Assembly (NCBI RefSeq): GCF_014841105.1
Contig: NZ_JACYWE010000001.1
Coordinates: 205,517 to 229,516 of the forward strand
Length of the DNA: 24,000 bases
Reading direction: 5' to 3'
Origin: Lolliginicoccus lacisalsi
GTDB taxonomy: Bacteria; Actinomycetota; Actinomycetes; Mycobacteriales; Mycobacteriaceae
The translations under genes and the position numbers were made by a program. The notes beneath the pieces were generated by a model that was given only the letters and a program-made list of their open reading frames with translations, did no database searches and was not told where the DNA came from. The stretch's first letter is position 1; the number at the start of each line of letters is the position of its first letter. Shown piece by piece: positions 12,221 to 15,203 of this stretch.

Positions 12221-14481
12221 CGGTGCCGATGGTGCAGGCGTGGGATCCTGGCACGTTCGCGCGCGCCTCGCGCGTGATGGCCGACCGTGCTGATGCGTTG
12301 TTCAACCACGGCAAGCGCCTTCGCGACGCGTTCGACGCTCTTGGGGAGCAGTGGGATGGCGCCGCGCACACGGCCGCCGATGATCGCGCGAACGCCGAGT
12401 GGGGGCACGCCAAAGCAGTCGCGGTTCGAGTCGAGGAGACCGCGGACTCTCTCGCGCGGGCGACCTACGACCTAGGCAGCACGTGCGAGGCATTGCAGGC
12501 GCTCCTGCTCGATGCTCCCCGCAAGCGGCTGCTGGTCCGTGACGACTGGACCGTCACCGCGCTTGATCCAGAATCCCAAGCCCTGGCCGTGGCGGAGGCG
12601 CAGCGCATCACGGGACTCCTCGCTGATCTCGAGGCATTCGACGCGACGCTCGCCGCCGCGCTCACCAGCCTCGCCCGTGACGTCGACCAGCTCACCCCCA
12701 CCGACACCGGTATCACCCCGAGCGATTCCATCGAGCTCGCGAACCGGCTCCGCGCCGAGCTCGGCTCACCACTCGGCATCACGCCAGCGCTCGCTGCGGA
12801 GATCGGCGAGCACCTCGCCCAGCTCGGGCTCTCGCCTGCCCAGCTCGCCGCCACGGCCGCCGGGCAACCTGTCTCCCTCCCACCGGACCAGCTCGGTGCG
12901 CTGCGCGCATTCTTCACCGAGACCAGCGGTAGCGACCTCCGTAGCCTCTCGTGGCACTACGACAACGAAGCCGACCCAGGGGGCGATGAGCACCACACCG
13001 CGCTCGCCAATGCCCTGCTCCTCGTGTCGAATGAGCAGATCGGCGCGGGCCTCGACCACCATGGCGAGCTGCGCAGCCCCGGCGGATACCAGTATGTGCC
13101 CGACGATATCCGCGAGGCGCTCGCGAACCGGCGCGACGACGGCCTCCCCGGCATGACCACCGTCAAGCCACTGGCAGATCTACTTGCGACAGCTGATCCG
13201 CAGTACGCGCCCGGCGAGGAGCTCGGCGCCCAGCTCGTCCACGCCGCCGCCCCCATCGGAGCCCTCTCCGTCGAGGCCGAGCAGCTCGACGGACGCAACG
13301 CCACCCTCGAGTACCCGTTCCACAGGGACTACCCGGAGATCTCCGACACCCTGCTAGACGTGGGCCTGCGCAACACCGACAGTGCTGCCGCCATCCTCAC
13401 CGGCACCTACAGCCACGGCGCCGACCTGCCGTCCTACGACCGCGACACCACCGTTGCCCAGCTCCTCCTCCACGGTGGATCATCCGCCACCCCGCTCATC
13501 GACTGGATCGCGGACGACGCCACCAGCCCCGACCACGACACCGCCACACGCGCCGGCCAATCCGCCCACGGGCTCGCCCAGGCCATCGGCTCCGACACAA
13601 CCGGGATCGGCGGCAACAACCACCACGCGTTCCTCAACGTCCCCCACCACGACAACCACGCGATCGGCCACACCAGCCCCGAGACCACCCGCGCCATCGC
13701 CAACGCGCTGACCCCGTATATTCCGAATATGGGCCAAGTGAACCCAAACCTTCTTGCCACCGATGGATTTGGTGCAGTGTCACATGGAGAAGCTGTCCGA
13801 ATATTCTCGGTCATCGATAGCAATGCTGATGTGGCGGCAGACTTCAATGCCCGGGCATATCGATCTGTTTCTGACCTCGAAGTCATCTATATCGAAAGCC
13901 TGGTGGGTGGTAATGGAAATCGACACACTGACATCGGCAGCTACATTGGATGGATTCAAGGATATATTGAGCACGGCTATATCGTCGAAGCCGAGGATCG
14001 ATCCGAGGGCATTCTGTCAGCTGCCGCTTCGCAACGCGAAGCCATAGAGCGCGCTTCGACTATCGTAGGTTCCACCCTATCCTTTGCTCCTTATGTTGGG
14101 CCAGCGATGAGTGGCGCCAGCGCACTGCTTGGCGAGTCACTGCCTAGCCGAATCGCAGGCAATGTTGAGCCGATATACACTGGCGACATGATCAACTCAG
14201 ATCAAACAATAGCTCGGCACACCTACAATGCAATCGTGACGCTCGACGGCCTAGGGGCGATCTCGCCAGACACTAGACTGGATGCGTTTCGATCAGGTAC
14301 GGGTGACTTTCTTCCTTACAGTGAGGCGATCCTAGTCGACAATCCGCATAATAATGCACTGACTGGTAGCGCCAAGCTCGACTCGATTTCAATAAACTAC
14401 CTCACTGACAACGGATTCCCCATCTCCGATTATACTCAACGAATACAGAATGCCCGCCTAGAGATCGGCAAACTTAAATGA
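12211..14481 (+). CDS. large WXG-type (putative T7SS-signal N-domain) modular protein, 756 aa; alternative start at ATG 12229
   Basis: The N-terminal ~100 aa form a helix-turn-helix hairpin with W-x-G at GEQWDGAAH (nt 12352-12360), as in WXG100-like secretion domains. It overlaps the stop of the upstream small gene. The rest is long, helical and Ala/Leu/Asp-rich. The C-terminal third is encoded by low-GC DNA. Confidence 0.7.
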   Translation: MGLTVPMVQAWDPGTFARASRVMADRADALFNHGKRLRDAFDALGEQWDGAAHTAADDRANAEWGHAKAVAVRVEETADSLARATYDLGSTCEALQALLLDAPRKRLLVRDDWTVTALDPESQALAVAEAQRITGLLADLEAFDATLAAALTSLARDVDQLTPTDTGITPSDSIELANRLRAELGSPLGITPALAAEIGEHLAQLGLSPAQLAATAAGQPVSLPPDQLGALRAFFTETSGSDLRSLSWHYDNEADPGGDEHHTALANALLLVSNEQIGAGLDHHGELRSPGGYQYVPDDIREALANRRDDGLPGMTTVKPLADLLATADPQYAPGEELGAQLVHAAAPIGALSVEAEQLDGRNATLEYPFHRDYPEISDTLLDVGLRNTDSAAAILTGTYSHGADLPSYDRDTTVAQLLLHGGSSATPLIDWIADDATSPDHDTATRAGQSAHGLAQAIGSDTTGIGGNNHHAFLNVPHHDNHAIGHTSPETTRAIANALTPYIPNMGQVNPNLLATDGFGAVSHGEAVRIFSVIDSNADVAADFNARAYRSVSDLEVIYIESLVGGNGNRHTDIGSYIGWIQGYIEHGYIVEAEDRSEGILSAAASQREAIERASTIVGSTLSFAPYVGPAMSGASALLGESLPSRIAGNVEPIYTGDMINSDQTIARHTYNAIVTLDGLGAISPDTRLDAFRSGTGDFLPYSEAILVDNPHNNALTGSAKLDSISINYLTDNGFPISDYTQRIQNARLEIGKLK

Positions 14482-15203
14482 CTCCACCGCGAAACTCATA
14501 CACCTTCTTACTAGGTTCTCTAGCAGCATCAGCAATCCTCGTAGGATGTAGTTCAGGTAGCGTCGCGAACGACTTCGTCGATAAATGCATGACCGAGCCC
14601 GTGCCCGGAACTGCCCTTCTTCACGGCCTGGTTGGCGACCTCGAGGACTCCGAAGGGCTTGCCGGCATGACGGGAACCCTCGACCCCTACCTTGATGCTG
14701 AAGGAAAGCTCCTATCGCTCGAGGTCGGCATTTCAGTTGACAATCCAGTCAATAACGCGCTGACCGGATATGCGAAACTCGATGCTGCTCTCGTCAACTA
14801 CCTCACGTCCATCGACTATCCGCACCATCCGTTCGCCCTGGCGTACTCGAACCTGCGCGATGTGACACTCAACGGCCAGGAACTGCTCCCCGACGACCGG
14901 ATCCTGTACGCGCTCGCGGAGGCCAACGAAGCCGAACTGGCCGGCCCGAGCGCGGAGTTCCGCGACTTGCTGCCCACCTCGGCAGCGCTCGACCCGTTCC
15001 GCAGCACCGAGGGTGTCCTCGTGCCATTCGAGGATGCGATCGCCATCGCCAACCCCACCGACGACCCGATCATCGGCCACACGACCCTGACCCGCATCCT
15101 CACCGAGCACTTCACGCGCCTCGACATCCCCGCCCACGTCCTCGTCGATACCTACCGCGAGGCCACCACCGACTGCGTGCCCGAGGCCCCTCAAGGAGAG
15201 TAG
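14478..15203 (+). CDS. lipoprotein (241 aa) with two copies of a ~52-aa module shared with the upstream protein
   Basis: ATGA start/stop overlap with the upstream gene (14478-14481). Signal peptide plus lipobox: MTPPRNSYTFLLGSLAASAILVG-C (Cys24). Confidence 0.75.
   Translation: MTPPRNSYTFLLGSLAASAILVGCSSGSVANDFVDKCMTEPVPGTALLHGLVGDLEDSEGLAGMTGTLDPYLDAEGKLLSLEVGISVDNPVNNALTGYAKLDAALVNYLTSIDYPHHPFALAYSNLRDVTLNGQELLPDDRILYALAEANEAELAGPSAEFRDLLPTSAALDPFRSTEGVLVPFEDAIAIANPTDDPIIGHTTLTRILTEHFTRLDIPAHVLVDTYREATTDCVPEAPQGE

Follow-up and report, generated by a model that had tools for sequence, protein, structure and literature searches.

A domain present in both a putative ESX substrate and the adjacent lipoprotein of Lolliginicoccus lacisalsi and related Mycobacteriales

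In a 24,000-nucleotide stretch of the Lolliginicoccus lacisalsi genome (contig NZ_JACYWE010000001.1, positions 205,517 to 229,516; the whole stretch is referred to here as the window), we analysed a three-gene cassette that encodes a small EspC/WXG100-like partner, a 756-aa putative substrate of an ESX-type secretion system (type VII secretion system, T7SS) and a lipoprotein. The 756-aa protein, called the effector below, ends in a domain (T) of which the lipoprotein contains two further copies (L1 and L2). T, L1 and L2 are paralogous copies of one domain and fall into two subtypes, one comprising T and L1 and the other L2. T and L1 share a matching 20-residue patch, and both lie in a block of low GC content that ends with L1, leaving the lipoprotein gene a mosaic. 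The reading that we favour, with a probability of roughly 45%, treats these genes as a polymorphic ESX effector/cognate-lipoprotein cassette in which the patch serves like-with-like recognition. The coordinates of all cassette features are given in Table 1.

Table 1 Features of the cassette and its immediate surroundings in the window (aa, amino acids; GC3, GC content at third codon positions; AF2, AlphaFold2).
Feature	Position	Strand	Basis
Small partner gene, 118 aa, helical, EspC/WXG100-like	11864..12220	+	Sequence and sub-threshold family matches
Putative ESX/T7SS-type substrate, 756 aa	12211..14481	+	Pfam PF23275, N-terminal alignment
Low-GC3 recombinant block (variable effector C-terminal region, T, signal peptide, L1)	13715..14800	+	GC3, identity drop
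T domain, effector aa ~659-756	14185..14478	+	hhalign, AF2; 52-aa core 14278-14433
Patch in T, HNNALTGSAKLDSISINYLT, aa 713-732	14347..14406	+	Profile columns 36-55
Lipoprotein, 241 aa	14478..15203	+	Lipobox, AF2 model
L1 repeat, lipoprotein aa ~43-133, T-type subtype	14604..14876	+	Core 14679-14834
Patch in L1, VNNALTGYAKLDAALVNYLT	14748-14807	+	Profile columns 36-55
L2 repeat, lipoprotein aa ~139-230, separate, more conserved subtype	14892..15167	+	Core 14988-15143
Inverted repeat, 21-nt arms, 90% complementary, just 3' of the lipoprotein stop	15225..15283	.	

The effector and the lipoprotein share a domain

An earlier interpretation made from the DNA alone (the sequence-only reading) had described a module of ~52 aa, once at the effector C-terminus and twice in the lipoprotein. 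The three intervals that it gave, now the cores in Table 1, translate exactly to the peptides it quoted, and direct reading bears out its identity counts of 18/24 between the cores of T and L1 and 9/18 between the leading parts of T and L2. When the 756-aa protein is compared with the 241-aa lipoprotein by BLASTP, its last 60 residues align with lipoprotein residues 68-127 (26/60 identical, E 1e-10), and T also aligns with L2 over lipoprotein residues 171-218 (16/48 identical, E 1e-5). Comparison with shuffled sequences yields z scores of 18.8 for T-L1, 13.7 for T-L2 and 17.6 for L1-L2, and none of 1000 shuffles reaches the observed score. Alignments of the effector C-terminus and of the lipoproteins match in hhalign with a probability of 99.2% (E 7e-20) over 88 columns, which pair effector aa ~666-753 with lipoprotein aa 43-131. 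Chance similarity or a low-complexity artefact behind the three copies, for which the shortness of the 52-aa core is the sole point, can practically be dismissed, as it is refuted by these E values, by the z scores of up to 18.8 and by the recurrence of the module in independent genomes. At the DNA level, T, L1 and L2 are just 46-51% identical.

The homologous unit is longer than originally proposed: both hhalign and AF2 models extend it to ~88-95 aa. An AF2 model of the mature lipoprotein, built from a 10-sequence alignment, is all-helical with two repeats (predicted local distance difference test score, pLDDT, 84.8; predicted template modelling score, pTM, 0.82). Each repeat consists of a long helix, a short helix, a two-residue beta bridge, a further short helix and two final helices, and T shows the same order of elements in a model of the effector C-terminus, whose last ~95 residues are confidently placed (pLDDT 84-93). 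The module is thereby predicted to be a five-helix domain of ~90 residues. It has no sequence match in Pfam, NCBIfam or the PDB; a profile search of the PDB gave a best E of 0.15, and Foldseek searches of the PDB and BFVD gave best E values of 0.38 and 0.48, respectively. No Pfam family is common to the 10 lipoprotein members, even at E<=5.

The mature lipoprotein is made up entirely of L1 and L2, with a conserved cysteine near both ends. Its earlier assignment as a lipoprotein is sound, since the signal peptide MTPPRNSYTFLLGSLAASAILVG-C24 contains the lipobox ILVGC with Cys24 at 14547-14549, and equivalent lipoboxes are found in all seven homologues examined (the forms include LASC, ATGC, LVAC, IVGC, LTSC and LVGC). 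The NCBI entry HT102_01020 (204 aa, 'hypothetical protein', Hoyosella sp. G463 = Lolliginicoccus lacisalsi) is identical to this open reading frame (ORF) and was annotated from an internal methionine, so that the signal peptide and lipobox were missed (window 14478-14588). A paralogue, HT102_06435, and its Lolliginicoccus suaedae orthologue have also been annotated too short, at 154 aa, where the DNA contains a 243-aa lipoprotein ORF.

The domain is confined to one type of cassette

When 1.84 billion representative proteins were searched with a profile of the module, 12 matches were returned, of which 11 are genuine cassette proteins: lipoproteins of 219-241 aa with two matching stretches each, proteins of 750-836 aa with one stretch at the extreme C-terminus, and fragments of these. 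A 500-aa repeat protein (P0011) was considered as a family member and discarded as spurious, scoring 2.6 bits with an improved profile. Six-frame scans of all loci and of the whole window with the improved profile found one copy per effector C-terminus, two per lipoprotein and one orphan. Six cassette types in a few Mycobacteriales carry the module, which occurs in no other arrangement among the 1.84 billion proteins. The module is thus not a common cell-wall-binding repeat, a possibility that the sequence-only reading had raised, as it matches no curated family and the profile search finds it only in effector C-termini and adjacent lipoproteins. Two scans of JGI metagenomes and a search of phages found no further members, and plasmids gave one irrelevant weak match.

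The gene order is conserved among relatives. A small gene of 105-118 aa, present in all related loci at the position of the small partner, is followed by a TPR_23 protein ending in the module and by one or two two-module lipoproteins, with genes that abut or overlap. This synteny was seen in Nocardia sp. NPDC058058, Antrihabitans stalactiti, Hoyosella rhizosphaerae, L. suaedae and metagenome contigs; the contigs read were some near-identical to A. stalactiti and two further ones. A genome scan with the effector alignment yielded two loci, and the L. suaedae orthologue locus (L008) stood in for the paralogue cassette of L. lacisalsi itself.

The relatives also display features characteristic of conflict systems. 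A conserved N-terminal part is combined with variable C-termini, among paralogues as well as orthologues, as is also seen in a sliding identity profile of the window protein, and the downstream lipoprotein family changes together with the effector C-terminus; orphan copies of C-termini and lipoproteins are present. One H. rhizosphaerae locus (L005) contains three cassettes whose TPR_23 proteins have unrelated C-termini and are followed by different lipoprotein families. Module sharing as a general cassette property was rejected, because the other two H. rhizosphaerae cassettes lack a shared module. The module-bearing cassette is followed by a 974-bp tandem duplication of the effector's last 81 codons and the lipoprotein, which has produced an additional lipoprotein gene and an isolated fragment of T. 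The orphan T-only frame (L005 8716-8967) is 87% identical to the intact T and lies between two near-identical lipoprotein genes. In the further cassettes of this locus (563-3642 and 9967-15008), one or two small genes and a TPR_23 protein with another C-terminus are accompanied by 1-4 lipoproteins of another family (C-terminal PGW), one of which seems to be broken into two pieces of 107 and 141 aa. In loci of the Antrihabitans type, a second lipoprotein is present that has an L1 patch unlike T. Between A. stalactiti and contig L006, a close relative, the lipoproteins (57-60% identical) have diverged faster than the effector (89%); the small partner is 69% identical.

T and L1 form one subtype and share a matching patch

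The split between T plus L1 and L2 has 89% bootstrap support, and monophyly of all T copies has 0%. The closest relative of T is its own L1 in 4/5 lineages. In the window the two are 46% identical (bootstrap for the pairing 74%), and the corresponding values are 63% (93%) in H. rhizosphaerae, 58% (56%) in Antrihabitans and 52% (26%) in Nocardia; T copies of different lineages are 33-46% identical.

The similarity between T and L1 within a locus is concentrated in profile columns 36-55, the 20-residue patch. Here within-locus T-L1 identity is 52-69% (mean 58%), compared with 31-33% in every cross-lineage comparison, whereas columns 13-35 are ~50% identical in all comparisons and, in the flanks of the patch, T copies are nearer to each other than to L1. 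In 11 columns, T equals L1 in at least 3/4 lineages while the residue varies between lineages. Of the 24 possible pairings of T with L1, the true one ranks first. At residues identical between T and L1, codon coincidence matches the expectation from codon usage in five loci (z -1.0 to +1.2). Recent gene conversion between T and L1 was therefore rejected, there being no shared-codon excess in any of these loci, and codons at chance level indicate that the match is maintained at the protein level.

Between A. stalactiti and L006, 16/20 patch residues of L1 are conserved on direct reading, as against 14/23 in the rest of L1, and the reverse holds across lineages. Conservation in close relatives combined with variability across lineages is the behaviour that would be expected of a specificity determinant. 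The L2 copies of the window and of L. suaedae are 69% identical even though the L1 patches of the two cassettes are unrelated: the L1 patch varies independently of L2. On this ground, direct pairing of T with L1 appears most likely. The patch in T and L1 probably decides which lipoprotein recognises which effector.

A low-GC block ends inside the lipoprotein gene

The low-GC block described in the sequence-only reading proved well founded, with GC3 values of 0.52 for T and 0.62 for L1 and 0.94 for L2, which lies in native high-GC sequence. At ~13715 GC3 drops from 0.9-1.0 to 0.4-0.6, and from ~14800, the end of L1, it is back at 0.8-1.0. The left junction coincides with a conserved LTPYIPNMG, an instance of the family-wide motif ALxPYIxN. 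The effector is 45-68% identical to its H. rhizosphaerae counterpart before aa ~524 and 15-38% past it. Upstream, windows over aa 372-500 are 45-73% identical to Hoyosella and Lolliginicoccus proteins versus ~30-40% to those of Nocardia and Antrihabitans, and downstream of the junction all relatives are about equally distant from the window protein.

On the right-hand side, the window's L2 shares 69% identity with its counterparts in the L. suaedae cassette and the paralogue, and L1 just 38%. Lipoprotein aa 171-241 are 64% identical to L. suaedae in protein and 69% in DNA, and the N-terminal 115 aa are 19-36% identical. The suggestion that L2 is a remnant of the resident cassette marking the right-hand crossover is well supported by this contrast between L2 and L1 and by the step in GC3 from ~0.5-0.65 to ~0.9 at the end of L1. 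From composition and identity, it is most likely that the variable C-terminal region was brought in together with T, the signal peptide and L1 on a single recombinant segment, with L2 resident. A foreign toxin domain within the low-GC block was ruled out by full-length homology: the effector C-terminal region in the block is homologous along its length to those of the relatives, at 31-33% identity, and allelic replacement is indicated instead. In L. suaedae (L008 7780-8240) and Nocardia (L002 ~8070-8930), GC3 likewise dips over T and L1, though less deeply, and the lower GC3 of this segment in three high-GC genomes suggests that T and L1 have been replaced repeatedly.

The effector and its small partner

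The effector contains an EspA-like TPR_23 domain at aa 204-432 (PF23275, E 3.2e-34, 119.3 bits against a cut-off of 27), as recorded likewise for its homologues, and its NCBI name is 'TPR repeat region-containing protein'. A helical C-terminal region follows, and then the terminal T domain. The start at 12211 is backed by the N-terminal alignment with homologues, and direct reading shows a WDG motif at ~aa 47-50. The effector stop is overlapped by the ATG of the lipoprotein gene (ATGA). A conserved membrane-inserting segment before T was considered and rejected, since a clearly hydrophobic stretch occurs only in the H. rhizosphaerae protein. That stretch, the Gly/Ala-rich IASGIAATGAGAIPGIGFPAAATVIAVTGVL (aa ~645-680; L005 7590-7700), lies just before T and is much weaker or missing in other effectors.

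The small partner begins with GTG at 11864, preceded by AAGGAGG at 11852-11858, and direct reading shows a YxxxE motif (YEVTE) near its C-terminus. The inverted repeat that follows the lipoprotein gene may mark the end of the operon, and a consensus scan made no terminator call there.

How the cassette may work

In the mechanism that we propose, the large protein would be exported together with its small partner, and its T domain would be recognised by the lipoprotein at the outer face of the cytoplasmic membrane. Specificity would be set by the 20-residue loop-helix patch, of which T and L1 carry a matching lineage-specific version, and L2 would be the constant half of the lipoprotein. The lipoprotein would neutralise or hold its own effector in an immunity-like role, and the low-GC block would be exchanged as a unit by recombination between conserved flanks, the resident L2 being kept. 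What the sequences show is the homology of the copies, the architecture of the proteins, the linkage of the genes, the subtypes, the matching patch and the mosaic block. Secretion, physical binding between T and the lipoprotein, and toxin and immunity roles are what we infer here, and the effector is an effector in the toxin sense only putatively, with presumed ESX-dependent export. The narrower proposition that the lipoprotein recognises the effector through a copy of the effector's own terminal domain, with patches pairing like-with-like or L1 mimicking T, is one that we hold as possible yet doubtful.

Several observations weigh against the proposed cassette function. No T7SS/ESX core genes lie within the 24-kb window. 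The matches of the small partner and its homologues to PF10824 (EspC) and DUF7162 are below threshold (E 0.003-0.07), as is the WXG100 match of the effector N-terminus (aa 11-83, E 0.0085, 16.8 bits with a cut-off of 27.3), which also has a weak match to TIGR03930 (E 0.021). No recognisable toxin fold was found in the effector C-terminal region by Pfam, NCBIfam or PDB sequence searches. The AF2 model of the last 277 residues is poor overall (pLDDT 60.7), and Foldseek with this low-confidence model gave a best E of 0.98. With only four or five independent lineages, the permutation test of T-L1 pairing can reach no lower than p = 1/24. The L. suaedae cassette is an exception to the pairing, its T having diverged without a match to L1. 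Between A. stalactiti and a metagenomic relative, T is 92% conserved and L1 65%, so that L1 is able to drift without a change in T. Finally, old short-tract gene conversion combined with purifying selection could yield the T-L1 pattern.

Conversion of this kind is the basis of a neutral explanation that we consider improbable, in which concerted evolution by short-tract exchange between T and L1, 400 bp apart, keeps alike a patch without a recognition role, and contact between the proteins is not required. The match is indeed short and contiguous with class-specific flanks, like a conversion tract, and a 48-nt stretch at the patch is the sole DNA repeat shared by T and L1. Where L1 orthologues differ, moreover, direct reading shows that one often equals T, which suggests an ancestor nearer T, and the L. 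suaedae cassette shows that matching is dispensable. However, none of the five loci has an excess of shared codons, and 9/14 identical residues in the window patch use different codons, so that any conversion must be ancient, with selection having kept the residues in T as well as L1 ever since. Across lineages the patch varies more than any other part, yet between close relatives it is the best-kept part of L1, and L2, which is equally close to L1, was never homogenised. Recognition of T by a matching L1 remains our preferred reading over this one. It is also unlikely, in our estimate, that T and L1 bind not each other but the same lineage-specific surface of a third partner, with L1 as a decoy or competitor; that surface could belong to the variable C-terminal region of the effector itself or to a component of the envelope. 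Such an arrangement would fit a patch common to T and L1 while L2 has its own conserved version, and the block carries the variable C-terminal region along with T and L1, so the effector itself could be a third co-adapted element. Yet no candidate ligand was found, the domain is unlike any known binding family, and a horizontally replaced patch is not expected to fit a host envelope component encoded elsewhere.

A role outside toxicity would make the large protein an ESX-exported envelope factor whose tethering or maturation at the membrane is the task of the lipoprotein, and the polymorphism would then be variation of surface or identity. No toxin domain is detected in the effector, which is all helical and homologous to its relatives along its length; no function has been assigned to the SigM/ESX-4 operons that share this gene order, and polymorphic esx-locus genes can encode self-identity (PMC9040860). 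We nevertheless judge an anchor or chaperone of this kind quite improbable, given that orphan duplications of C-terminus and lipoprotein, arrays of lipoprotein paralogues and fast lipoprotein evolution are typical of toxin-immunity loci (PMC9484751).

Relation to known systems

The cassette resembles EspA-EspC(-EspD) of Mycobacterium tuberculosis ESX-1 in its TPR_23 domain (E 3e-34) and in having a partner with weak similarity to EspC. EspA is ~390 aa long. The window protein is about twice this length, with an extra C-terminal region and T; a lipoprotein follows instead of EspD, and the gene order of the small partner differs. Gene order and protein classes are identical to those of an operon from the same bacterial order, the Mycobacterium abscessus SigM/ESX-4 regulon operon Mab_1286c-Mab_1285c-Mab_1284c, which encodes WXG100, EspA-like and lipoprotein-like proteins (PMC13491425). 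Compared by description, a domain shared between the EspA-like protein and the lipoprotein is not reported there (PMC13491425).

M. abscessus prophages carry cassettes of a small WXG100 protein, a large toxin with an N-terminal WXG domain and an immunity protein (Imm), some Imm being lipoproteins (PMC8092301). These share with the window cassette a variable C-terminus with a matching downstream protein and the presence of lipoproteins in an immunity role, which is putative for the window, and their toxins are ~50 kDa with recognisable toxin domains such as TNT-like ones (PMC8092301). The window cassette, in contrast, lies on the chromosome, without a match in phages or a recognisable toxin domain, and the lipoprotein here, unlike the prophage Imm, is made of copies of the effector's terminal domain. 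The LXG toxin/immunity pairs of the Firmicutes T7SSb, such as TelC-TipC (PMC6193138), have the design proposed here, a T7SS-exported helical N-terminal targeting domain with a variable C-terminus and an immunity protein facing the cell-wall compartment, and they too occur with tandem arrays of immunity paralogues shaped by recombination (PMC9484751). They belong to another phylum and use another targeting domain. We know of no LXG immunity protein that is homologous to part of its toxin.

The cassette type is thus already known; for the domain, its presence in both partners, the subtypes, the patch and the crossover within a gene, no description was found in the literature searched. Operons of ESX-4 type that encode a lipoprotein next to an EspA-like protein occur widely across Mycobacteriales, without assigned roles (PMC13491425). 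The present subfamily offers a handle on them, namely a small, confidently modelled domain in both partners and a 20-residue patch predicting cognate pairs. The subfamily also illustrates a route of cassette diversification, in which crossing over takes place within the lipoprotein gene, where a variable repeat meets a constant one. Should recognition depend on the patch, the principle would be unusual, with an immunity or receptor protein built from the effector's own domain, and specificity would be directly testable by patch swaps. One short segment, written twice, would then set the specificity between ESX effector and lipoprotein, a self-matching code for immunity or kin/self recognition that would be swapped between strains as one block of variable region, T and L1.

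Neighbouring genes

The cassette is flanked on one side by an IS30 transposase, a PIN/HTH pair and a UDG-family gene, and on the other by DUF6390 and hypE/D/F. The IS30-family ORF (window 7869-9104; HTH_38 and rve) has a GC content of 0.78 against ~0.65 around it, and a UDG-superfamily gene lies at 9537-10151. On the minus strand at 10204-11821, a 412-aa PIN_3 ORF overlaps the end of an HTH_17 (excisionase-like) ORF, forming a toxin-antitoxin-like pair. Together, the IS30 element, the PIN/HTH pair and the UDG gene suggest a position for the cassette at the margin of a mobile or variable islet beside the hyp genes. Further upstream, an 834-aa minus-strand ORF (4144-6648) has a weak nSTAND1 match and an ABC-type ATPase region that is interrupted by a zinc-finger-like insert. 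Two plus-strand ORFs, at 3985-5361 and 5368-5934 and both without a Pfam match, overlap this ORF, and the coding strand is ambiguous.

The related loci have neighbours of their own. Beside the Nocardia sp. NPDC058058 cassette, an EspC-family gene (PF10824) is followed by a gene for a 526-aa protein without a Pfam match (L002 9207-11113, minus strand), and the two may be a second ESX substrate pair. In L. suaedae, a DUF3558 lipoprotein gene lies upstream of the cassette (L008 2712-3284), and downstream of it large helicase genes and a DpdG-family gene (PF28110) occupy 9232-16732, a region that looks like a Dpd-type DNA-modification or defence island.

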